Assembly (NCBI GenBank): GCA_963825865.1
Contig: CAWGVG010000010.1
Span: 31,683 to 95,682 of the forward strand
Source: an uncultured Nitrososphaeraceae archaeon
GTDB lineage: Archaea; Thermoproteota; Nitrososphaeria; Nitrososphaerales; Nitrososphaeraceae
DNA length: 64,000 nucleotides
Reading direction: 5' to 3'
Below, piece after piece: positions 18,395-60,480 of the stretch. The notes beneath the pieces are model-generated. The model worked only from the letters and a program-made list of their open reading frames with translations, had not been told where the DNA came from and ran no database searches. Numbering within the stretch: position 1 is the first letter of the stretch; each line of letters opens with the position of its first letter. Both the position numbers and the translations under genes were made by a program.

Positions 18395-20060
18395 TTGTCT
18401 GGCAATACAACAAGCTTCGATGGCTATGGCAATCAATCAAAACCACGTACCAGGTTTGGCGAGAATACATTTGGTAATTGTATAACATTTACCATTGATG
18501 GACAAGAAAATTTTAGATTAATGTATGAAAAGATGCTACAAGCAAAAAACTCTATATATATAGCAAACTATGATCTGGACCCCGAATTGCGTCTTATAAG
18601 AGGAAAAGGGGATCCACAGTCGTTTCAGATGTCAGATTTTATTGTTTCACCTTGTCTGTCAGAATCAGATAATGGAAACGATAAGAAAAAAAATACACAT
18701 AATGGCGAATATTATACTCTACAAAACCTTTTGATTGAAAAGGCAAAACAAAAAGTAGATATCAAAATCATTGTATGGGAACCAAGACTTATTGTCAGAT
18801 CATTTCCACTCGCCAAAAAACGAGGATTAGAAGGAAGGGCTAAAAAAGTTGAATCTATGAGAGAACTTGCAAAGCATTATGGAATTGAAGACCATATAAC
18901 AATACGACTTGATAGTAAAGCACCTACTCTTACCTCTGGTTTTCATGAAAAAATTGCCATAATAGACAATAAAATAGGGTTTTGTGGTGGACAAGATTTA
19001 TCACAAGATAAATGGGATACAAGCGATCATGATTTTGATAACTCATTAAGAGACCAAGACGGAGAGCCTTGGCATGATGTTAATGCAATGATTAAGGGCC
19101 CAATAATATGGGATTTAATTTTCCATTTTAATCAGAGGTGGATTTATTCTCTTACAAAAGATATCAAACAGGTTAAAAAAGCAAAAATTAATTCATCAGG
19201 CTCCTTCCTTTCATCGTCTCTGTCTTCATCAGGCAGCATTAGCACCTTTTACTAATCGTGACAATGAAGGAAATATAGAGATTTCTGCATTACGGACTTG
19301 GAAGCAGTTAAAGGGAAATATTGGAGACAAGGATGATAATGAAGATGATGGTGATAGTAGTAGCAGTAGCAGCGTACGAGCATGGTATGATACTATGTTT
19401 AGAAAAGCAAAACATAGCATATACATAGAGGATCAATTTCTCTTTCAAGATAAAATTATAACCCAGATTCTTGTCAAAAGGCTTGAAGAAGAACAGGATC
19501 TGAAAGTTATAACAGTAGGCCCAATGGAACCAAATCTTCCAGGCTTTTTCTTTAGTATCTTATCAAAAGAAAGCATCAATGATATAAACAACAATTTGGC
19601 TGCTTTACGAAAAGCAGGGAAAAACCGAGTTAGAACATATTGTTTGATATCGCAACATAGTGCAATCAAACAAAAAAGAAAACAGATCTATGTTCATTCA
19701 AAAATCATGATAACTGATGATAGGTGGATTATAATTGGTTCTGCAAATACAGATAGAGACGGTTTTAATGATTCGACAGAATTCGATTTAGGAATAACAT
19801 CCGAAACACTTGCGCAGCAGCTTAGAGCAAAGTTATGGCGTGAACATTTGAAAGAATACATCTCTTCTAATAATAATATCAATCTGAAGGATTTTAATAA
19901 AGGATTTGAAGCTTGGGATAAAGTAGCAAATGATAATGGAAAAAGAGTTCAAAAAGGTGAATCTATACAGGGACACATCTATTACTATAATTTTGAAGAA
20001 ATGAATTTTCCCCCTCCTTATACAGATGCAAAAGGAGGTAACAAATTTCGATTTTTTTAA
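18395..20060 (+). CDS. Phospholipase D family protein with two HKD motifs (apparent indel near 19250)
   Basis: HEKIAIID...GFCGGQDL, PWHDV, IYIEDQF and IYVHSKIMITDD..IIGSAN. Confidence 0.9.
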
Positions 20061-25891: not shown

Positions 25892-26412
25892 ATTTAAGAT
25901 TACGCTATAAATGATTATGCAATATGACATATAATAGATCAGAGAAAGAATGTGTGCGTGTCTGTTAGGTAGCTTTAATTAGAAAAAATTTAAGATTATA
26001 GTCATCATATTATTATATTAGAAGTCACCACCTTGTTATAGAATAGTATTATTTATTTAGCATAAATATTAATGAATACAATATGTTTATAGCTTAGCTT
26101 GTTTTATTGATAGCAAATGTTAACAACAGCTAACGTTAGTCACCATCTTGAAAAATATATCAAAACCATTAATACGATGAATAAAGCTACTGCTAAAGTA
26201 TATAATTTTAGACGCACATCAACACCTTATGATTTGTAAAGAGCACTGTTTATAGATACACAATTTTAACAGACATTCTAGCATATACGCTTAATGTTAA
26301 GGCTAAGATAATGACATCATGATGATGATGATGATGATGATGATGCTTTTTTAGCACTTTGCGAAACATTTAACCTACTGTTTTTATTCGTATTCTTTAA
26401 TAGCGCTACTAC

Positions 26413-27579
26413 TAAGTGAAGTGTCTGAATTTATGTCGTTATTTGTTCATTACATAACCTAGATTTGGAAATAGTTAAAGCTTAGTAAATGAGATATTTT
26501 CATTCTGTGAATCATCCTTTCAAACTCAAACTTACCATAGGACAGAGGAACAAATTAAAGTCATTTATGAAGAATACGGGTAACAAAAAAGAATACCGCA
26601 GGCTACTGGCTATACTCCAAAAAGCTGAAGGTAGAACTTACGAAGACATAGCAAATGAACACGGAGTCAGCAGCAGGTCTGTACAGAGATGGGTTGCTGC
26701 CTATATCCAAAGTGGGATAGATAGAATAAAGATGAAGAAACCTGGCGGAACAAAATCTGGCATAACAGATGAAAACAGAGAGATTATTCTATCAGCATTA
26801 TTTAACGACCCGCACATCTTTGGTTATCTTAGAAATACATGGAGTCTGAGATCACTTGCAAACTGTCTGACAAATGAGCTAGGAATCCCAATCAGCTTCA
26901 AGCACCTGCAGAGAATAACAAAAGATTTAGGAGTTAGGTGCAAAAGACCAAAACTGGAACTGCTACATGGAGGAAAGGATTATGAAGAGGGAAAAGAGAA
27001 AGTGCAAAACTACAAACAGATAGCTTCAGCTCTGAAAAAAAGGGAGTTGTAGTAGCATTTGAAGATGAGACTATTATAACACAGAAACCTTGTATTCGAA
27101 AATCCATGAGTTTTGAAGGTGAGCAACAAAGGATAGAACATACTGGTAGTAGAAAGAAGTTCTCTGCATACATATCCATGGTATGGCCTGAAGAGAAATT
27201 AATGACGTATGATTTCTATGATAAAATGGATTCTACGAATACTATCGACCATCTAGAGAATCTCAAGACAAACATTATGAAAAATGATTGGTGGAAAAGA
27301 CTGGTACTCATATGGGATAACGCTTCATATCATGTAAGCCTAATGGTACGGAATTATATCAATGCACAGAGAAAGAAGACTGGCTGACCATAATCCACCT
27401 TCCAAAGAAAGCACCATACCTAAATCCGAATGAAAGGAAAGTAAACCAGCAAATAAAGTCAGATGTATGTGCGAATAGATTCTATGAACATATGGAAGAC
27501 CAGAAAGCTGCAGTATCAGAATATTTGGACAAACGATTTGGAAGATGGTATGACGACATTAGTTATGACACTTGACTTA
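26413..27579 (+). mobile_element. Complete IS630-family insertion sequence
   Basis: Imperfect 27-bp TIRs including the terminal TA: TAAGTGAAGTGTCTGAATTTATGTCGT versus reverse-complement TAAGTCAAGTGTCATAACTAATGTCGT. Encloses HTH and DDE ORFs. Confidence 0.92.
26489..27575 (+). CDS. IS630 transposase; HTH orfA and DDE orfB joined at an AAAAAAAGGG slippery site
   Basis: orfA has HTH and WS motifs. orfB has AFEDET, LIWDNASYH and LPKKAPYLNPNE. Extra indel near 27370. Confidence 0.9.
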
Positions 27580-27590
27580 TCACTACTACA

Positions 27591-28218: not shown

Positions 28219-28580
28219 ATTATTTTCCATATTTTACTACTCTAAGCCAACATATATCAACTTATGTAAAGTTATAATGGCAAAGCAACAATAAATTCAC
28301 CAATAATCTTAGACCATTCTATTTTAAAGACATATTTTTCGATAATTTTGAATTCATGAAAAAATCATCGCATAAATTATTACTTAATTATTTAGCATAA
28401 TTATTATCGATCTATATAGAGAGATTATTTGATATAACAAACAACGATTTGTGTACATACCTTTTCAGAAAATTGTATTACTATTAATAGATATATAAAT
28501 AAGTTCTAATAGTTTGGTAACATTAATAATTATATCAAACAATTTAGCAGCAAATTACTTTACAGAAATCAGGTACTAGA

Positions 28581-28661
28581 TTATACTAAATAAGTCTGTA
28601 ATAACAAACAGTAATAACTTGCACAAGTCAAATATATAGACGACATTGTAATGCTTGTGAC
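28581..28661 (+). promoter_or_regulatory. Repeated promoter-like module with TATA-like AAATATATAG
   Basis: Lies directly upstream of ATG AAC AAC; same arrangement at two paralogues. Confidence 0.7.
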
Positions 28662-28670
28662 GAAATCTAA

Positions 28671-28997
28671 ATGAACAACACAAAATCACTAGCAATAGTT
28701 GCTGTCTTAATAGCGGCAACATTAGTAGTAGGAGTAACGTTCGCAGCGACAACACCAACAGCATCAGCAGCATATGGTCATAAGAAAGGAGACAAGAGAG
28801 ATGACAAGAGAGATGCTAATGGTAACACAATTACCGCTCAGATAAATGCACAAAAAGGGTATGTAAGCGGATTTGATAACACACTAGAACAAGAAGCACA
28901 AAACGTGATATGTACACATCCAGGCAGCAATGCAACCTGTGTAAGTGAAGGCAGCGAATCTACTGCAACTGACACAACTGACAACGGCGGAGAATAG
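28671..28997 (+). CDS. Small secreted protein, MNNTK family paralogue 1
   Basis: Signal peptide; GNT.T.Q...Q.G.VSGFDNT.EQE.QNVICTHP shared with the gene at 30469. Confidence 0.8.
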   Translation: MNNTKSLAIVAVLIAATLVVGVTFAATTPTASAAYGHKKGDKRDDKRDANGNTITAQINAQKGYVSGFDNTLEQEAQNVICTHPGSNATCVSEGSESTATDTTDNGGE

Positions 28998-29829: not shown

Positions 29830-30368
29830 CACACATAGCTAAAAGGTTTTCGATAGCAGATTGTTTAAGATTATTATGGTATTATATTGCGTATATTGAT
29901 TAACTTTTTTTTCTGTATGTATTAGAACAATATATCTATTAAATTAAAATACACAATTGCTAATCAGAATCACATATTCAAGTAGAATAGCTATTTTCTA
30001 AAATTACAATCTTTACACTTTATTACAAGTGCTAACCGATTGTCATAAAACACCAATAATAGCTAAATGAATAACCTCACTTGATTTTATATAACGCATA
30101 TAGCTAAAATATTTTCGACAGCAGATTGTACTAAATTATTATAGTAGTATATGATGTAATTAGATTATCAATAGATATATTGAAAGATAGTATGCTTTTC
30201 CTTTTATTTCGTAATATCCAATAATAGATAAATAGATAGTTATCACCGATTACTGGCTATAAACAGTAAAAATATCCAGTAATAGATAATAGCCAATATA
30301 CTATTAATTAGAGAATATAACTGATAATAGACAACTGAGTTTTTTACTTAGTTTGATATCGTCAATAG

Positions 30369-30460
30369 TTATACTAAATAAGTCAGCATTAAATCATATT
30401 AAATAAATCATAATTAACTTACTCAAGTCAAATATATAGAATAATTGTAATGCTTGATAA
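30369..30460 (+). promoter_or_regulatory. Repeated promoter-like module
   Basis: ttatactaaataagtcagc...aacttactcaagtcaaatatatagaataattgtaatgcttg. Confidence 0.7.
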
Positions 30461-30468
30461 CGAGTATT

Positions 30469-31111
30469 ATGAACAACACGAAAACTCTAACAGCAATAGC
30501 TGCTATATTAATAGCGGCAACATTAGTAGTAGGAGGAACATTAGCATCATCAACAACAACAGCATTTGCTTATAAACAAAAGAAAGGAGGGTCACAAGAA
30601 AATAATAAAGATGGTAACACAGTTACCGTCCAGAAATGCAAACAAATAGGGTCAGTAAGTGGATTTGATAACACAGCAGAACAAGAATGTCAAAACGTGA
30701 TATGTACTCATCCAAGCGAGCGGTGCAACCTGTGTAAGTGAGCCAGGTCAAGCAACACCACCAGCTACGGCAACCTTATTAGTCAAAAAAGTCGTAAAAT
30801 GTCTACAAGATACAATAACAACAGATGGCTGTCAGAACCAAAAGTTCAAAATAACAGTAACAGATACCAATCCTGACCCATCTTCATTCGATCTTGGAAA
30901 TGGCGGCACTCAACTTGTGACATTAGATGCGGGTATCTTACACAGTAAGTGAACCTGAACATGCAGGCTTTAATGTTACTTTCTCTGGTGATTGCAACGC
31001 AACTGGCGAGGTACCATAGCTGCAGGCGTACACCAGACATGTACTATTACAAACACAGAACATACAATGTGTGCGTTTGTGTTAGTGCAACACCAAAAAG
31101 AAATCAACTTA
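30469..31111 (+). CDS. Secreted MNNTK-family paralogue 2 with added beta-sandwich (prealbumin/Cna-B-like) domain; several indels, end approximate
   Basis: Shared N-domain, then across frames ATLLVKKVV...ITVTDTNPDPSSFDL..GGTQLVTLDAG.YTVSE...VTFSGDC...CTITNT. Confidence 0.7.
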
Positions 31112-31307
31112 ACCTGCCAACATCCTTTTTTTTATTTTTTAAGATTCAATCGGTAATAATTAATACTATTATCAATCGGTAAGTGAATACTTCACTAAAT
31201 TTATATCGTCAATAGTTATACAAAATAATTTAGTAGTACATCATATTAAATAAATCAGCATTAACTTACTCAAGACAAATATACAGATGATATCATATTA
31301 AGAAAAT

Positions 31308-31678
31308 ATGAACAACATAACTACAAAAAATCTAGCTGTAGCTGCTGTCGTAGGCAGCAATACTAGTAATGGGAGGAACATTTGTAGCACTACAACCTGC
31401 AAATGCTATCGATGAAGTATACTCTCATTCTACCACAACAATATGTATAGATGATACACCGTGTGTCACAAAAATTTGTATAAATGACGAACCATGTCAT
31501 AATGCTGTCACATCAAATCCTACAAATACAGGCCATAATGCTGTCACATCAAATCCTACAAATACAGGCCATAATGCTGTCACATCAAATCCTACAAAAT
31601 ACAGGCCATAATTTAACTAATAATAATAATAAGGAAGGTCATACCTTATTTTCACTTTTTCCTCAAGAAAACAAATAA
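31308..31678 (+). CDS. Small secreted Cys-containing protein with related leader (frameshifted)
   Basis: MNNITTKNLAVAAVV leader, TTTICIDDTPCVTKICINDEPC and the same upstream module. Confidence 0.6.
31498..31612 (+). repeat. 36-bp tandem repeat x3 encoding HNAVTSNPTNTG
   Basis: cataatgctgtcacatcaaatcctacaaatacaggc repeated; third unit has one extra A. Confidence 0.9.
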
Positions 31679-31974: not shown

Positions 31975-32843
31975 ACTAGTAACTTACATTCGTATCATTC
32001 TAATTTTCCCTCTGTCAATGGCCTTATAGGGACCTGGTCCTTTCTTACTTTGAGTTTATCGAATATGTCTGTGCAGATTGAGGAGATTGCTCCTCTGTTA
32101 TTTCTAGACCCAATTCGTTCTTTATCACATCCTTTCCTTCCCTTGCACCAATTAGTATTATCTGTGCATTCTGATAGTCTATGAATTTTGTATCCTTAGC
32201 AAGAGATACAAAGTTCTCAGTCTCATTAAATTCCTTTAGCACCTCCTGTGGATATTTTGGCGGTTCCTCTGTGCTTGGATAACCTGTTGGGGCTGGCCTT
32301 TTAGGATTAATAACTGAAATAATATAACTTGCTTCCTTTTCGATACCTAGTTCTTTTTGAGCTTCACCAGGTTGTTCTGGCATTTCTAAAATATATGCAA
32401 GTTCTGCATGGTTTTGATGTCTTACTATGGCATATTTTCCTTCACCGACTGGTCTAGCTGCATCACCTTTTCTAAATTCATCTGACAAGAGACTCTTTTG
32501 TGAGCTCATTAGGATCATTAAAAATACCACCTACTCTAGCCCAATACCGCTCAGACGCTCTGGCCTCACTCTTTCTGATCTCGGGGAGTGATTTTTTACC
32601 TATAACAAATAGCCTATAAAACTGATTTTTATCACCACTCTCTTTAGTATTTTCTGATTTTTCAGGGGCAGTAACCATAAAAAAGCGCCTAACATCCTCA
32701 ATGCCCTTTACCTCATCCGCACCTTTCTTGGGCCTATAAAAGAAATAGATATCACCTTGTTCTAGAATTTCAGGTTTAGTATTATCACCATTATTATTAT
32801 TAGCATTCATTTGATTTTCTTGTTGTCTTTGTTGTTGGCTCAT
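31975..32843 (-). CDS. Conserved hypothetical protein (apparent indels near 32500 and 32070)
   Basis: ILEQGDIYFFYRPK...RLFVIGKKSLP...ARPVGEGKY...LAYILEMP...SYIISVINP in two overlapping ORFs. Confidence 0.75.
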
Positions 32844-32869
32844 AATTAAATTCTCCCTCTCTTTCTTTT

Positions 32870-33139
32870 TTAATTTATTAAAAGTGACAAATTACATTCT
32901 TGACAAAAGTAGCAGAGCCCATTAAAATCAGATGATAATGACATTATATCATAACAGCGAGGACATTCAATTTCCTGTTCTAGATCTTGTAGCATTTTCT
33001 TTTCTCCATTGTTATCCTCAGTTTCTTTCTCATATTGCAAAGGATTAGGATCGAGTCGCTGTTGTTGTCGTTGTTGTGTTGCTGTTGCTGATGATGCTGC
33101 AATAGCAATTTCTTGCTCCTCATTTTTTTGGACTAGCAT
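32870..33139 (-). CDS. Small Zn-ribbon protein
   Basis: IECPRCYDIM...YFCQECNL. Confidence 0.65.
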   Translation of the reverse strand: MLVQKNEEQEIAIAASSATATQQRQQQRLDPNPLQYEKETEDNNGEKKMLQDLEQEIECPRCYDIMSLSSDFNGLCYFCQECNLSLLIN

Positions 33140-33320
33140 TGATTAGATTGAGTTGCTATTATATCCTGAATCACCATAAGGGGAGGGAGTCTCTATTTGT
33201 ATTGTACCTAATTGAAATGGTATATTACGATCAATGTACCTCTCTCTCCCTGTCCCCAAGTAGCTTTCCTAGTTATATGCAAGACAAAGCCAATGCAATA
33301 TCAAGAGGTCAGATAAAATC

Positions 33321-34429
33321 ATGTCTCATGTCAGTGAATTGCGACTAGAGGACCTACCTGATGTTGAACCATATTTGATAAATAAACTAAAAAGAGCTGG
33401 AATACAATCAGTTTTAGACCTAGCCGCATCAATCCCCATCGAACTTGCAGGAGGAGGAGATTATATCGATGATGACAACTCAGCAATTACAGCTGACATA
33501 GAGACAATATCACAACTTGTAGGTAAGGCCAAAAAAGCCCTTATAGATTCTGGCTCACTTAACAAGGAGTTTTGCACAGCTGAAGAGTTCCTTGAAAGGA
33601 GAAATAATCTTGTCAGATTTACAACAGGATCTGTAAACCTGGATGCATTCTTGAAAGGTGGAATAGAATCCCAAGCAATTACAGAGATTGCAGGGGAATT
33701 TGGTTCAGGAAAAAGTCAGTTATGTCATACTTTATGCGTTACTGCTCGGCTAATAATAATAAAGAGAAAAGAGGAAAACTGGGACGAGGAGGAGGAACAG
33801 TAGCAGGAGACCTTAGCAGAAAAAACTAATAATAATATAATATTCATAGATACAGAAAACACTTTCAGACCAGAGAGAATTCACCAGATAGCAGAAGGCA
33901 GAGGACTCGAGCCAGAGGAAATAATGAAAAGAGTGTTTGTATGCAAAATATACAATAGCGCTCACCTTGAAGCTATAATAAAAAATCTTGGCAAATCTAT
34001 AGAACATTACAAAGCCAAGCTTGTTATCATTGATAGCATTATCTCGCTTCACAGAGCAGAATTTCCAGGAAGGGAGACCCTGGCTGAAAGACAGCAGAGG
34101 CTCAATGTTATGTTACATAGACTGATAAGGCTAGCAGAAATTTACAATGTCGCAGTAGTTCTTACAAATCAAGTTCAGTCACAACCAGATAATTTTTTTG
34201 GCGGTATTGGTGGTGGTGGAAGCGATCCAACGTGTGCAGCTGGAGGTAATATTATGGGACACGCCTCTACATACAGGATTTTTCTAAGAAAAGCAGGTCA
34301 TGACAGAATAGCAATAATGCTTGATTCGCCACACCACGCATACGGTCAAAACTAAGTTTACAATTAGTGAAAAAGGAGTACAAGGATACTAGAGGAGGAG
34401 GAGAAAGCAAGATCAGGGAACAGCAGTAA
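33321..34429 (+). CDS. radA: RadA/Rad51-family recombinase paralogue with N-terminal HhH domain (apparent indels near 33750 and 34350)
   Basis: LEDLPDV HhH, TTGS..LD..L.GG, Walker [22 protein letters not shown], Walker [30 protein letters not shown]. Confidence 0.9.
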
Positions 34430-34477
34430 CAAATACAGTGAGTCTGGCTGGTAGGTAGGAGGTAGTAGCATAGCAAC

Positions 34478-36350
34478 ATGACCCCTGGGGACAACAACAT
34501 ATTAAGAACAATCCCTCAGGAAAAAGATTATCCTCTTGATCCAAATACAATTCCAGTACCACCATCATCCCAGCAGCCAAGACCGCAGGTAACATTATCC
34601 GAATTAATTCCGGGAAATATGTCTCTACTAGCGCAAGAGTAGTTTATCTAAAGACTATTGAAAGACAGGATGCTCTTGGAAGCAAGATGCTATTTTCTGG
34701 AATATTAGAGGATTCTACTTTTAAAGTTCCTTTTATCAGCCACAGGATTTCATATCCTTTGATAAGGAACTCTGTCTACAAATTTGACTCGGCTTATGTA
34801 CATGAATTTTCGTCCTCAGATAAATCGCTTTTACTAGTAATAACAGAGCATACAAAAATAGACTCCAAGAATATTGACGATTACAGGGAATTTATTTGGA
34901 GCCCAAAGATAGAATCGATAAAGAGGCCAGTTAGAAACCTTACTTTGCAGGGATTAATCACAACAGTACATAGTAATTCTGGACTGGTCAAAAGATGTAA
35001 CAAATGCAAATCAATAATCTATGATTCATGTCCCAATAAATGTCCTCAAGAGGAGGGTTGGGGCTGGGACCTCAGAGTGTCCTCAAGGCTCTACGATGGT
35101 TCAGGGTCAATAAAGATGGTTTTGACAAAGGATATAGCATCAAAAGTGTTGCACATGAATTTAGCAGAGTTAATTTTACTTGCAACAACAACAACAGCGT
35201 AGTAGTAATGTTCCAGCCCAAAGCTACAGCAACGACCAACACCATCACCAATTTCAACCACCATCTGTATTTACAATAAAGATTCCTGATAGCATCGATA
35301 TAATAGAGGCAGTAACAGAGGACAATATTTTGTCGTCCTCTTATAGGAGCAGCGAAAAGCTCATAGTAACTGATGGACGAAACCTTGTCTATTTCCCACA
35401 AAATGAGGAGAATGAGCAAAAGTTCTCAGAATCATTCAAGAGACCATTAAAGACCTCTGATGTGAGGATAAAAAAATAATCAAAAGGCTGATTGAAAAAG
35501 CAGTCGATATCAACATCAGAAAAGTTACTGGCAAAAGGATGATGCAGGGGATTTATCTCCTTGAGGAACCTATTTCCCTTTATAGATGTGAAAGGGCGAA
35601 ATTATACCTTGGATTTTCAGTCAGGCTGAATATAAAAGAAAAGGAAAAAGAACAACAAGATAACGCAGCAACTGTAACAACGACTGCTGCTGTAATTGAA
35701 ACAACTCCACAAGCCTACGTAAGAGAAAGCGTGCTTGATTATATTAAAATGAGAAGGGAGCGTGGTGCATCTGCAAATGCCATTATACGTAACTTGTTAA
35801 CATATAGAAATAAGGTGGTTGTGGCCCCATCTGGAAACTATGGTAGTATTGTTGATGTAATCATAAGAAAGGCAGAAACCCAACTCGTTTCAGACACCGA
35901 CAAGAGAAACTTGGTAGAATTCTGGAAGCAGATATATGATATTGACATATCAGCTGATGAAATTCCACTACTAAAAGTAAAGATGATGAATTCTGAAAAT
36001 ATCTTTACCTACCCTCCCAAGTATGTGCTTTTTTGGGAGCGAATCTTTACTTATTCAAGCAGACGTTCAAAAATTCATTGAGAGCAAAAAGTCCACACTC
36101 AAAGCAAGAATGGATGATAGTTATCAAAAAGGCAATAGTAACACAAGATTTGGCTATAGGACCTACAAAACTAGAATTTGAAGAGGAACAGAATGGTTCA
36201 CAAGGGCAGCGGCAGCCAGGTGACATTCAAAGCCACATTCTGCAAGAAATAAGACAGAAATTATTTGGGAGGAACGTTACAGCTAGAGGTTCGATCATGT
36301 TTGTTCATGATGAGCTTTGGTTCTTTCCATACCAATTGCAGCTTTCATAG
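34478..36350 (+). CDS. RPA-like multi-OB/Zn-finger ssDNA-binding protein with an inserted Argonaute N-L1-PAZ-like region (one gene reconstructed across about five apparent indels)
   Basis: OB motifs SGILEDSTFKVPF and LQGLITTVHSNSGLVKRCNKC...C...C...DLRVSSRLYDGSGSI. Insert has TDGRNLVY, LYLGFSVRL, ESVLDYI and NLVEFWKQIYDIDI...PLLKV...YPPSMC. OB completion IRQKLFGRNVTARG. Confidence 0.75.
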
Positions 36351-36353
36351 AAT

Positions 36354-37215
36354 GTGAGTGGTGATGAGGTAAGAATGAGCATTTATACAATCAATGAACC
36401 AAGTAATAACAATAATCAAATCTCATTTGAAATGCATTCGGCCTTAGAGCAATTCAATGATCACAGAAATACTTTAAAGATGACCACAGGATCGGCCGAC
36501 CTTGACTCGTTAATAGATGGTATACAAGAAGGGTTGTTCTATCTATTTTATGGCAACAACAACTATGCGGTACAGGATTCCCTTGTATACAGATTCCTTG
36601 TTAACTGTGTACTGCCAATAAAACAAAAACATGGTTTTGAATCAATGGGCGTTTGTTTTAATAATGCAGATTATTACAATAGTAGAAAGACATCTCTTAG
36701 CCCAGAAAAGTTAGGAGTTGCAGCAAAATGTGCTAGCATAGATCCAAAGATTGTTTTTAAGAACTTGTACATCCATACCGCATATAATGAAGCAGCAACA
36801 GCTATTAGTTGCAGAACAGGTTGCTGACCTAATAGAATCTAACAAGGACATCAAGCTGCTAGTAGTTAATAGATTAACAAGATTTTTCAAAGAATCAAAA
36901 AAGAAAATGGAAACTGCCAATGTCTTGAAGCAGGTTGTAGGAATAATTTGCAAGGCTTGTGCTAAGGGTAAAGTAGCACTAGTATGCACTGGTGATTCAA
37001 ATTTGACAAGCAAAGGTGTAATACCAAGGCCAATAGGTGGAATATACCTAAAACATGCGGCAAATGTGATTGTACATATTAAAGAATATCCTAACAGCAC
37101 TGCTGCCATTCCTTCATTTAAGGCAACATTGGTTAAACACCAGTATATGAAAACTCCAAAATCAGCAGTTCTTTACCTTAGAAAGTTTAGTGGAGGAATG
37201 ACACTTTTAGATTGA
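36354..37215 (+). CDS. RadA-like protein with degenerate Walker A/B, probably inactive (indel near 36790)
   Basis: MTTGSADLDSLIDGIQEG and PIGGIYLKHAANVIVHI...ATLVKH are retained. Walker A reads YGNNNYAVQD and Walker B reads LLVVNR. Confidence 0.8.
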
Positions 37216-37252
37216 ATTCTGAACCAAAAAAATTGATAGGTGGTGTTGATAT

Positions 37253-37625
37253 ATAGGCAGAATAACGCCATCATTTCGTCAACTATATGAGGAAACAATA
37301 TCAGAGCTAAGAACAGAGCTGCAGGCAGCACTTGTAGATTTAGGTCACAAGAGTGCATTTGACTTGCTGTTAAAGGAAGCCTGGAATCCAGAACAGGCTC
37401 GCTATGGGCAATTCTACCTTACCCACGGTTAGTGACAAACTAAATGTCATGGCATCAATACACAACAGAAAGCTTATTGCAGTATTGGCAAAGGAATTGA
37501 AGGAAAAGGATGTTGGGATAGAGGAACTCAAGCAGAATATCGCTTCACTTCAGGATAAATTAAATGAAATATACATTGAAATGAAACCCAAGGGAGACAA
37601 GCAACTACCCCAACAGCAACAGTAG
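37253..37625 (+). CDS. PolB2-associated small helical protein (arCOG07300-like), copy 1, with coiled-coil tail
   Basis: Hand translation (I)GRITPSFRQLYEETISELRTELQAALVDLGHKSAFDLLLKEAWNPEQA, joining ORF 37404..37625 through one indel. Similar to 40239..40505. Confidence 0.7.
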
Positions 37626-37656
37626 TAGGAATAATTGGAGCCATAATATAATAACA

Positions 37657-40104
37657 ATGTCAAGTTGTACCGGCTGGCTCTTTGATATTTCTATAGAACA
37701 TAATCAAGCTGTCCTGTGGATAAAAACTATCGATAGACAGATCCTTAAGCTAATAGACACTTATCAGCCAAGGTTCTACATATTACCCAGAAATGAATCT
37801 GATGGATTACATCTTTTCCAAGTATTATCTCAACAAACCATAGTGGCCAAAGTTAGATGGGAGGAGGACAAGCTTACAAATCTTTTTGATCATGATTATA
37901 CTACAACAAAAAAGAAAAAACTAATTTGTGTTTACCCCCAATCCACACAGTATTATGTACCCATTCTAAAAATATTAGAAAAAGACCATAGAGTAAAGCA
38001 ATTGTTCAATACAGATCTCTCACATATCCAGCAATATTTGTTTACCAGATTGAGAATTGAACCTACAAGTAAAGTTGAAGTGGAGTATGAGGGTACTACG
38101 ATAATTAGAATAAGCAAAATTGATGACGAACAAGAGGTATCTCCACCTCCCTTTTCTTTACTATATATTGACGTTGAAACATTTTCAGGAAAATTTACTT
38201 TTGATGATCCGATTAGAATGATAAAGACTAGGTATGAAATTGGTGATGAAAAGGAGAATAGAGAACATGTTTCATTCCAAAGCAATGAGGAAAATATCAT
38301 CCTTCAGGATTTCTCTAATTACGTGCTTGCTAAAGATCCCGACATCGTTGTTTGCGTGAGAGAGTCTGAGAGTAAAATATTTCATTACCTCTTTACACGA
38401 ATAAAGAAACTTGGGCTTAACTTGCAACTTGGGCGAGAGGTCCCATCAGAGGATCTCGTGAGTTTAAAGCGCCCAGTGTCAGAGTGGATCAGAGGTAGAA
38501 TTTGCATTGAAAGCAGTGATGGTAGTGGTGGGATTAATAGACAACAACAACAACACTCAACATTTGATAGTTTTGGGCTTGCAGGATTAATAGAAAGATC
38601 AAAGTTCGGTTTTGTTCCTTTGAGAATAGCTGCAAGATACGGTATAAACCGTCTAATAGATAGCAGGAATTGTTATGAATTAATCCAGAGAGGCTTTGTT
38701 ATTTCAAAGAATAATCATTCTGGTGGAAGCAAGAACAATAACGATAACAATCATGAACGAATCAGGACCTTAGAGGAACTGGTTTCAAGGGATAAGGGCG
38801 GTATGATAATATCTCCTCAGGTTGGCTTGCATGAAAATGTTGTATCACTAGATTATGACAGCGAATACGCAAATCTAATAGTGAATCATAACTTGAGCTA
38901 TGAAACTGTTACCTTACAAGATGGAGGAGTAGTCCTACAACAATTCAATGACAACAAAAAAGGCTTGTTGCCTACCGTTGTAGAGAAATTTCTCAAAAGA
39001 CGGCTCTATTTCAAGAGATTATTAAAAGAACTACCAAAGGAGAGCATGGAGTCTCTCTGTTGCGAACAGCGTGTCAATTCATTAAAGAACATACTAGTTT
39101 GTCTTTATGGTGCAACTGGTTCTCTCTGGAATAGATATGGTAATGTGCTTGCTTTTGAGGAAATAAACAAAATATCTAGGGAAATATTGATAAAAACAAA
39201 GGATATTGTTCAGCAGTTAGGCTATGAGCTGGTATATGCAGATACAGACTCTGTATTTATTAAAAGGAAAGATGCTGCGATAACCACTGTAATGCAACGA
39301 CAATAAGCCGATCATGAACAAGTTGTAGATATATTATCCAAAGAAACAGGCCTTTCAATATCTGTCGATTATAATTACAAGTTTTTGGTGCTATTGCCTA
39401 TTGAAGCTGATGAAAATATAGAGGCATTAAAGCACTACTATGGAATTACACAACAAGGCGAGTTAGTTGTCAGGGGTATAGAAATTAGGAGACACGATAT
39501 TCCAAACTTTATAAAACAATTTCAAACTGAATTACTATACACACTTTTTAATTGCAAAGATTCAGCTGAGGTAGTAAGCAAAGGATATGAAAATTGTCTT
39601 TTATTGGTTACCAAAGCAATAGATAAAATAATGACAGGTGAAGGCGTTCACCAAGAGGATCTTGTAATCTCTAAATTACTTGGACAGGATATACAAAAGT
39701 ACAAGAGTTTATTTCCCCATGTCTCTGCTGCTATTCAATTATTAAACAATAAAGGAGGAGGGGGTAAATATCCAACAAAAGGCGACACTATCCGATATAT
39801 TTATACAAATTCACAACACAACAACCCCCTTTGCAGAGTTGTACCTTTAGAGATTTTACAAAAAGGAGAAAAAGACGGTAAGGAGAATGGTAAAACTCTG
39901 AATTATGATAAGGAAAAATATAGGGAAATGATACTTGATGCTGCAGAAACTGTTCTAGGTTATTTCGGCTTTAATAGGACTGTTTATGAAAATCCTAGGA
40001 ATAATAGAACGAAAAAAAAGAAATGGTATGATGAATTGCAGGGAGAAAGAACAAAAGATATCCAGACAGAGAGAATGATGGAAAACAATAAAGCGTACAT
40101 TTAA
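37657..40104 (+). CDS. polB2: Family B DNA polymerase, PolB2-like (apparent indel near 39300)
   Basis: DKGGMIISPQVGLHENVVSLDYDSEYAN (motif A), KNILVCLYG (B), YADTDS (C), KHYYG, VRGIEIRRHD, YDKEKY. Confidence 0.9.
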
Positions 40105-40238
40105 TCAAATTATACCTTTTACAGGGATCAGCACAACCAAAACCATATCATTGAGTTGCAGAAACTAGTTGTACATCTCCTACAATAATCTACGAATCCG
40201 TATTATGCGCATGTAGAGAGACTAATAATAATAATGAC

Positions 40239-40505
40239 TCAGAGATGGTCTTTTTTTGTGTTTGCTTCTATTTGTTTAGCAATCATTCTAAGTTGTTCGT
40301 AGTGATGAAAGATAATGGACATAAAAATTGGATTTATCCTTATAGGATTAGCAGCATAAGAGCAAGCAGAATTATACAAATGTGCAATATCAAACATGTT
40401 GTCGAACACCTTTCTGTCTGATTTATTCAAACTTTTGCGAAATACTTTCCATTCCTTTTGTTCCATCATGCTAGCTATTCGAAATGAAGGAATAGTTCTG
40501 CCCAT
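40239..40505 (-). CDS. PolB2-associated small helical protein (arCOG07300-like), copy 2
   Basis: MGRTIPSFR...EWKVFRKSL..SDRKVFDNMF...P..I.MSI pattern. Confidence 0.8.
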   Translation of the reverse strand: MGRTIPSFRIASMMEQKEWKVFRKSLNKSDRKVFDNMFDIAHLYNSACSYAANPIRINPIFMSIIFHHYEQLRMIAKQIEANTKKDHL

Positions 40506-60326: not shown

Positions 60327-60480
60327 AACCCACGGCTTGCGCCGTGGGCTACATTCTTCGCGCGCTCCGCGGCTAGCCCTTTACGGCGTTCCGCGCTAGT
60401 CGAAACCCGGACGAAGTATGGCACGGACCAGAGCCGCGTAGCGGCGCAGAAAATATAGCCCACGGCGTAAGCCGTGGGTT
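60327..60480. repeat. Inverted pair of ~48-bp REP-like palindromic elements
   Basis: 60327..60374 is an imperfect reverse complement of 60432..60480. Each contains the hairpin CCCACGGC-n4-GCCGTGGG. Confidence 0.8.

Follow-up and report, generated by a model that had tools for sequence, protein, structure and literature searches.

What is the cluster of five tightly spaced, co-oriented genes and a convergent sixth at positions 33321-40505 of this DNA, and does it represent a conserved repair system or the decayed remains of one? The stretch analysed, hereafter the window, comprises 64,000 nucleotides (nt) of contig C10 of an uncultured Nitrososphaeraceae archaeon (genome G000), and an original prediction made from the letters alone had read the cluster as a mutasome-like cassette that includes polB2. 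PolB2 is needed for damage-induced mutagenesis in Sulfolobus, and we know of no account of how the PolB2 complex finds and holds primer ends. The published PolB2 mutasome comprises PolB2, an inactive RadA (iRadA) and a PPB2 trimer (PMC11791011), and operons encoding PolB2, iRadA and PPB2 (arCOG07300) have been described in archaea and some bacteria (PMC4104785, PMC11791011). Our analysis indicates that the cassette itself is real, a variant of this known system to which a RadA and a further protein, here named X, have been added. We give a probability of roughly 0.6 to the reading that the window locus is one of at least four paralogous copies of a conserved unit, made up of a divergent zinc-ribbon gene and a RadA-X-iRadA-PPB2-PolB2 operon.

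The open reading frames (ORFs) of 33321-40505 were listed and all three frames analysed, and the proteins of an intact relative (genome G022, in which X has 613 amino acids, aa) were placed on the window by tblastn, mapping both the gene pieces and the changes of frame. RadA, X, iRadA, PPB2 and PolB follow one another on the plus strand, with gaps of 3 nt between X and iRadA, 37 nt between iRadA and PPB2 and 31 nt between PPB2 and PolB, and a convergent 88-aa ORF comes after them (Table 1). By ORF listing, tblastn and Pfam, the identity, order, strand and spacing of all six genes agree with the original prediction. The genes are not intact, however: as sequenced, each of the five co-oriented reading frames is interrupted. 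Nor are these the only genes of their kind in G000, as further RadA genes (contigs C62 and C32) and PolB genes (C27, C31, C3 and C26) are present.

A survey of gene neighbourhoods, one of the checks named alongside the original prediction, revealed that this arrangement is widespread. Searching 40 relatives with the N-terminal half of the PolB yielded closer homologues in a few genomes, and the G022 locus (L011) contains the full operon intact, as five tightly packed, overlapping genes. The set of loci analysed comprised 19 loci from 16 other genomes, 18 of which display the RadA-X-iRadA(-PPB2-PolB) order, the remaining one (L043) carrying X alone; since the same order recurs to this extent, the gene arrangement is conserved far beyond chance. 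All five genes are in open frames at five loci (L011, L031, L032, L033 and L035), five others are intact up to the contig end (L039, L040, L041, L042 and L044), and L038 has a 1.6-kb gap before PolB. Between intact copies, the ratio of nonsynonymous to synonymous substitution rates (dN/dS) is 0.06-0.19 for all five genes, an approximate range because dS is mostly above 1, which indicates purifying selection on every cassette gene in other genomes. The proposal that RadA and X are an unusual addition to a PolB2 cluster is thus confirmed, as both are conserved and under such selection.

Conservation extends upstream as far as one further gene. In most loci tblastx detects a zinc-ribbon gene on the opposite strand, 150-500 nt ahead of RadA; its G022 counterpart encodes 79 aa with the same cysteine pattern, and the protein has no Pfam family match. 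Beyond this gene, tblastx revealed no further conservation of the flanks between loci. The inverted repeat at 33179-33252 is matched upstream in L037, L045, L039, L013 and the second G000 copy described below (C9a), each time between the zinc-ribbon gene and RadA. RNAalifold on six window-type loci predicted 22 pairs, four with compensatory change, which we treat as a lead only, and the window repeat taken alone is not significant (z = -1.6). A C/T-rich motif precedes RadA by approximately 75-95 nt in each of the 17 loci inspected. The conserved repeat or the motif may be an operator or a structured leader.

Across the family, X was found in 38 of 201 sampled Nitrososphaeraceae genomes and 9 of 18 genera, a tally that includes the unpublished genomes G176 and G092. 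A search at the level of the phylum recovered X in 2 of 401 genomes, namely G000 and G612, the latter from another family; outside the Nitrososphaeraceae this amounts to one genome in 398. In G612 (locus L133, contig C90, 280-6220) a shorter X (359 + 84 aa) is followed by iRadA-PPB2-PolB without RadA, and a divergent wHTH gene and a likewise divergent Orc1/Cdc6 gene stand alongside. All 25 loci taken from named genome records belong to soil metagenome-assembled genomes of Nitrososphaeraceae or Nitrososphaerales (some labelled Thermoproteota), including Candidatus Nitrosopolaris. Within a set of 5.8 billion proteins, 863 relatives of X were retrieved at E <= 1e-5, and all of those listed are nameless or "hypothetical protein"; a library at 50% identity holds 311 X representatives, around ten of them full length and the rest fragments.

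Table 1. Features of the cassette and its immediate flanks in the window.
Feature	Position	Strand	Basis
Divergent zinc-ribbon protein, 89 aa, C-terminal CPxC...CxxC	32870..33139	-	Neighbour conserved across loci (tblastx)
Inverted repeat with purine-rich and pyrimidine-rich arms, divergent promoter region	33179..33252		RNAalifold
Cassette RadA: HhH N-domain, Walker A and B, interrupted	33321..34454	+	Pfam Rad51 1.7e-67 read through
X: predicted RPA-like OB folds, zinc ribbon, Argonaute-like N-L1-PAZ-L2 lobe	34469..36350 (approx.)	+	tblastn; four frameshifts
iRadA, without P-loop	36354..37215	+	Pfam Rad51 8.1e-5 on first piece; frame change near 36780
PPB2 (arCOG07300-type) of the cassette	37253..37625	+	tblastn to G022 PPB2; extra C at 37400
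PolB2-type family B polymerase	37657..40104	+	Pfam DNA_pol_B 4.3e-31 read through; TAA 39304-39306
Orphan canonical-type PPB2, 88 aa, starts MGRTIPSFR	40239..40505	-	49% identity to canonical PPB2 of G014

The last three genes of the operon carry what appear to be the defining features of the published PolB2 mutasome, judging from their sequences. Their order, iRadA-PPB2-PolB, is that of the mutasome operon and is found in the window as well as at 14 of the 15 loci extending to PolB, and also in L013 with a 2.6-kb gap. Over its core, the 308-aa iRadA of G022 matches Pfam Rad51 (2.2e-8) and NCBIfam RadA (2e-14); the latter match begins at position 62 of the RadA profile, the N-terminal helical domain being absent. 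The Walker A position lacks GKS/T and reads FYGNNNY in the window, in line with the original description of a dead RadA-like gene: this is a second RadA without a P-loop. PPB2 of G022 (124 aa) starts MGRITPSFR and so displays the MGR..PSFR arm with R3 and R9, and the window PPB2 is 81% identical to it over residues 1-52 and 56% over residues 50-111 in the next frame; with this N-terminal arm present, the call of an arCOG07300-like gene stands. As in the mutasome operon, one clade, that of G022, carries a further, armless PPB2 downstream, and an 85-aa gene follows PolB there.

The window PolB is 40% identical to the G022 PolB (735 aa) over its full length. A D[KR][GA]G motif approximately 150 aa before motif C is present in 7 of 9 cassette PolBs, the window included, in 7 of 7 canonical PolB2s and in none of 7 PolB1-type polymerases, and from its spacing it would correspond to the published D(K/R) motif, which belongs to the loop ahead of motif A and lies at 148 aa in S. 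islandicus (PMC11791011). The window copy reads DKGG, with YADTDS at motif C. Across the nine cassette PolBs motif C is invariably YADTD[SA], as compared to HGIVDS in canonical PolB2 and YGDTDS in PolB1. Inspection of the exonuclease region by eye found DVE at Exo I in the window, absent in G022, and no visible N..FD Exo II motif. The cassette polymerase thus keeps the catalytic DxD and appears to have a decayed exonuclease; a DxD-intact PolB2 has been reported for some TACK archaea (PMC11791011). In a tree calculated without an outgroup, the comparison with housekeeping copies that had been suggested, PolBs fall into three clean clades: cassette, canonical PolB2 and PolB1. Full-length BLAST alignment of the cassette PolB is obtained only with canonical PolB2. 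The original call of a PolB2-type polymerase stands.

The family also possesses a canonical PolB2 operon, and the cassette exists besides it, often in several copies. In G014, a genome without the cassette, this operon reads iRadA-PPB2-PPB2b-PolB2 with DUF72 nearby; it draws on the same protein families as the cassette, has neither RadA nor X, and its motif C lacks the first aspartate. The cassette polymerases form a clade separate from these canonical PolB2s (23-27% identical), and the cassette differs further in adding an active RadA paralogue and X, co-oriented and upstream, as well as the divergent zinc-ribbon gene. A PolB of the canonical size class occurs about once per genome in the relatives searched, the operon context being taken from G014, and in G000 the parts of the canonical operon are scattered over several contigs. 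The convergent sixth gene belongs with this second system. Its product matches the PPB2 of the canonical G014 operon at 5e-34, has only the 9-residue N-terminal arm in common with the cassette PPB2, and no PPB2 of this type stands beside the cassette in the other loci searched. The original prediction had counted it as a second arCOG07300-like member of the cassette: the identity stands, the membership does not, and the gene is, on these comparisons, an orphan canonical-type PPB2.

Like the cassette, the bacterial ImuA-ImuB-DnaE2 system and the E. coli Pol V mutasome (UmuD'2C-RecA-ATP) tie a translesion polymerase to a RecA-family subunit. Their polymerase families are unrelated to PolB2, neither is known to have a PAZ or OB component, and the cassette, unlike them, encodes an active recombinase in the operon itself. 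The analogy with the Pol V mutasome has been drawn for PolB2 before (PMC11791011).

The first gene of the operon encodes that recombinase. RadA of G022 (348 aa) matches the NCBIfam RadA equivalog at 8.7e-93, above its 259-bit cut-off, and the window RadA, 47% identical to it (tblastn), retains both Walker A (GEFGSGKSQ, with GSGKS) and Walker B (hhhhD), as claimed for a full-length RadA with intact motifs. The Walker A stretch G119-Q127 is invariant in an alignment of 13 cassette RadAs. A tree against housekeeping copies, likewise suggested at the outset, places the cassette RadAs in a single clade (support 98/95), which includes one RadA without an adjacent X (G126_C10b); this clade is sister (100/100) to the family's second RadA paralogue and is separate from a third clade, of RadAs found once per genome. 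Each of the 13 cassette RadAs has an acidic C-terminal tail whose last residue is always Trp (..ESGW or ..DSAW), and a hydrophobic tip is conserved at the C-terminus of the iRadAs (MLFILD or MMLLD); the two kinds of ending resemble docking peptides.

Protein X combines two modules. The intact G022 protein matches NCBIfam RPA/SSB (8e-18) over residues 47-236, with NF005554 at 8.1e-18, under the equivalog cut-off. Pfam PAZ matches residues 451-513 at E 0.0024, which is sub-threshold (18.3 bits, as compared to a cut-off of 28.8), and the window pieces between RadA and PolB give a weak Pfam PAZ match as well (0.006). We built an AlphaFold2 model on a 21-sequence alignment (25-84% identity), with a mean predicted local distance difference test (pLDDT) score of 81.2, and compared it with the PDB using Foldseek. 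The predicted fold splits in two: residues ~47-236 resemble archaeal RPA (8oej_A at 3.3e-10, P. abyssi RPA 8aaj_A at 2.1e-9), and residues ~257-613 resemble the N-PAZ lobe of Piwi/Argonaute chains, the matches being Hili, Mili, Siwi, human Ago1-3 and prokaryotic Agos at 1e-8 to 1e-5. The OB domain of Ta0387 matches X at 1.4e-5, and a zinc-ribbon pattern, CxxC...CPxxC, is visible in the alignment. In a profile search of PDB sequences the PAZ signature aligns with the PAZ of Piwi-like 2 at a marginal E of 0.85, and a language-model atlas places residues 257-613 near PAZ and ArgoN-L1-PAZ clusters (score 0.92), again a lead only. No Pfam Piwi match was found in X, and the Foldseek alignments span 350-430 columns of targets that are 700-820 aa long. 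The predicted architecture of X thus places RPA-type OB folds and a zinc ribbon ahead of an Argonaute-like N-PAZ lobe that lacks MID and PIWI, in agreement with the RPA carrying a PAZ-like domain first proposed. X is not an Argonaute, as the protein ends after the PAZ-containing lobe; an Argonaute has MID and PIWI, X lacks both, and it therefore has no guide 5'-end pocket and no slicer.

A fusion of an Argonaute N-PAZ lobe to RPA-type OB folds was not found in the literature searched, and the main text of PMC11791011 contains no occurrence of RPA, OB-fold or PAZ. The RadA-X(-zinc-ribbon) extension was likewise not found in the literature searched, although the supplementary operon tables of PMC11791011, outside this search, may list such genes. 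What is known, then, is the PolB2-iRadA-PPB2 operon; what appears to be new is its extension by RadA and X and the architecture in which RPA-type OB folds are joined to an Argonaute N-PAZ lobe.

The Argonaute-like lobe, together with the patchy, multi-copy occurrence of the cassette in a repeat-rich accessory region, could instead mark a defence or conflict system against foreign DNA, in which the PAZ/OB protein senses the free DNA ends of invaders. We regard this as highly improbable. There is no PIWI or other nuclease, and PADLOC recognises neither X nor iRadA nor PPB2 and matches RadA and PolB only generically. The core of the cassette is a PolB2 mutasome, which has been tied to DNA-damage-induced mutagenesis (PMC11791011), and the G612 locus has Orc1/Cdc6 as its neighbour, as at other PolB2 operons.

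The reading as a conserved PolB2 variant includes the presence of several copies in G000. The block 32832-40085, zinc-ribbon gene included, recurs on contig C9 (13868-21048; copy C9a) at 91.6% identity, the homology running from just past the 3' end of the zinc-ribbon gene to just before the PolB stop codon. Two partial, 5'-truncated copies lie at C9 38057-41408 (inverted; C9b) and C54 49531-52349. About ten scattered PolB 3' fragments, all ending near 40085-40097, are found elsewhere in the genome; those homologous to window 39193-40091 include C47:103-880, C52:35090-35938 and C57:109854-110745, among others, and in several of them a frame of 250-287 aa stays open throughout. These fragments may represent remnants or, alternatively, independent genes encoding the C-terminal portion of the polymerase. 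A 5' truncation of these fragments like that of long interspersed nuclear elements was considered and dropped, as several are such open frames and one stops at a contig edge.

Is the cassette, then, a selfish or mobile unit, or the core of one, spreading within and between genomes, perhaps by its own recombinase and polymerase? Mobility had been proposed at the outset, and its copy number fits: at least four copies in G000 and several loci in both G126 and G070, with a patchy distribution in the family (38 of 201 genomes). The limits of the duplicated block coincide exactly with the outer gene ends (32848 and 40085), its flanks are non-syntenic between genomes except for the zinc-ribbon gene, the region is rich in repeats and insertion sequence (IS) copies, and a PolB2-type operon has been described on an integrated element of Nitrososphaera gargensis (PMC6563490). 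However, the boundaries of the block carry no integrase, transposase or target duplication and no terminal inverted or direct repeats, with low-complexity TAATAAT only, so that the hallmarks of mobility searched for there are missing. X, iRadA and PPB2 have no PHROGs or PADLOC family match, and strong purifying selection and a stable gene order would also fit a host accessory operon spread by ordinary recombination. We consider a mobile unit unlikely.

Two repeat families occur near the cassette. A sequence family of ~350 nt, found in the window at 28580-28950, 30350-30740 and 31150-31400, has more than 50 diverged copies (65-95% identity) genome-wide, often preceding PolB 3' fragments by a few hundred nt (C47, C52, C57 and C29, for example). 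An IS element of ~1.17 kb (26407-27582), with an HTH_23/HTH_28 transposase N-terminus, has 14 full-length copies in the genome, most ~99% identical and one 78%, which differ by nearly as many indels as substitutions.

A rival reading concerns the state of the window copy. Within 6.8 kb it shows no fewer than 13 indel events and two stop codons in frame, and it may be a true, recently decayed pseudogene, any functional copy being elsewhere or missing from this 82%-complete genome; we place this possibility somewhat short of even odds. The individual interruptions are as follows. In RadA, an in-frame TAG (33801-33803) lies inside a G000-specific insertion and recurs in C9a, and the tail ending SESGW is split over three frames. 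The pieces of X run through frames 2>1>2>1>3 (tblastn). iRadA has an extra A at 36790 that is absent from C9a, C9b and soil-metagenome contigs, and the window-specific extra C of PPB2 produces GCTCGC where three other copies have GCTGC. In PolB, comparison with C9b and C54 shows the TAA to be flanked by two compensating indels.

Several lines of evidence suggest that the fault lies largely with the assembly. Between C9a and the window copy there are 41 indel events, 35 of a length not divisible by three, as expected of decay, yet dN/dS between the two is 0.13 at dS 0.25, as low as between intact orthologues, and this would leave little time for neutral decay. As a background test, 143 ORFs of at least 250 aa were collected over 400 kb of a relative's complete genome, 89 of which had a top match of at least 45% identity in G000. 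These 89 conserved ORFs gave 54 single alignments, 24 split over frames and 11 partial, so that 24 of 78 assessable genes are split. Of 30 frame junctions in conserved genes (examples at C14:38794-38804, C3:54297-54299 and C25:1865-1867), 13 carry GCWGC or its forms expanded by one base, GCTCGC and GCGAGC, as compared to 2.1 on average and at most 7 in 2000 control resamples; we infer a systematic base-calling error at a modified motif. The PPB2 frameshift has this very GCTCGC form, and the RadA TAG stands at a GCAGC-like site, identical in two copies that are 8% diverged. Thirteen IS copies, most ~99% identical, show ~30 indel events in 15 kb (~2 per kb), the same density as the cassette, which points to noisy assembly of repeats. 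Low dN/dS, split conserved genes, GCWGC enrichment and IS indels together argue that most frame breaks are assembly noise, and because paralogue dN/dS is low and conserved genes are broken too, the notion of a pseudogenised element is downgraded. Programmed recoding, or another genetic code for TAG and TAA, was rejected, as both codons lie in out-of-frame stretches between compensating indels and frameshifts are found genome-wide.

A number of observations nevertheless weigh against reading the locus as one copy of a conserved unit. Its eight main interruptions compare with 2.1 expected from single-copy genes (Poisson P = 0.0016), and five of the eight lack the GCWGC-type signature, which is seen at three: the PPB2 GCTCGC, the iRadA shift abutting GCAGC and the RadA CAG-TAG-CAG. 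C9b and C54 being truncated also fits decay, and genes are broken in 7 of the 19 loci from other genomes (L034, L036, L037, L045, L046, L047 and L013), one having a 2.6-kb insertion between PPB2 and PolB. No public RNA run containing the stretch was found. The public DNA runs that come closest carry at most 0.22 of its words, with short soil-metagenome contigs 90-97% alike; these derive from relatives, not from the source sample, and therefore cannot settle whether the indels are real. The PAZ call in X is composed of sub-threshold sequence matches and a predicted fold with template-modelling (TM) scores of 0.2-0.35, which are low because only one lobe aligns. The three-clade PolB tree has no outgroup, so the cassette PolB cannot be read from it as sister of canonical PolB2. 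Finally, X stands beside mutasome genes without RadA in G612, and RadA is therefore not obligatory for X. As the assembly is full of frameshifts, we call the window copy neither dead nor alive; gene and pseudogene calls in G000 are unreliable, and because its frames are untrustworthy, pseudogene calls made from this assembly would mislead.

Elsewhere in the window, two adjacent phospholipase D (PLD)-like ORFs (286 and 221 aa) at 18395-20060 may be the two parts of a single phospholipase D/nuclease-family gene, separated by a frame error. At the end of the contig (60100-64000), GC content rises from ~0.28 to 0.55-0.63 within 300 nt and stays high; this stretch contains an Rfam match to Acido-Lenti-1 RNA (41.6 bits, 60432-60478 on the minus strand) together with an ORF for an alpha/beta-hydrolase, and it probably arose by chimeric joining with bacterial DNA or by recent transfer.

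How might such a cassette work? We infer a mechanism from the known roles of OB folds in binding single-stranded DNA, of PAZ in binding 3' ends, of RadA in filament formation and strand invasion, and of the PolB2 complex in damage-induced mutagenesis. The OB folds of X would hold single-stranded DNA and its PAZ the free 3' end, cassette RadA would form a filament on the X-held strand and pair it with a template, and the PolB2-iRadA-PPB2 complex would extend the 3' end, either across damage or from the invaded template. The whole would amount to damage tolerance coupled to recombination. Because G612 has X with the mutasome genes and no RadA, the polymerase complex probably has X as its primary partner, with RadA added later. 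A bolder version, which we hold to be distinctly unlikely, is that RadA and X make the PolB2 mutasome a recombination-primed, 3'-end-guided DNA-synthesis machine: X would capture a 3' end, RadA would invade a homologous or diverged template, and a DxD-intact, proofreading-less PolB2 would copy it with errors. If true, such a machine could copy the cassette itself to new sites, and this self-copying would explain the several copies per genome, the boundaries at gene ends and the lack of an integrase. It could also drive templated diversification of the surrounding paralogous gene families.

Taken together, this analysis suggests that in this operon the PolB2 complex is firmly tied to an active recombinase and to a protein with predicted modules for binding single strands and 3' ends, which offers a concrete connection, open to test, between recombination and translesion synthesis in archaea. 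X would be a PAZ-lobe protein that works without the PIWI half, from a family common in soil ammonia oxidisers.

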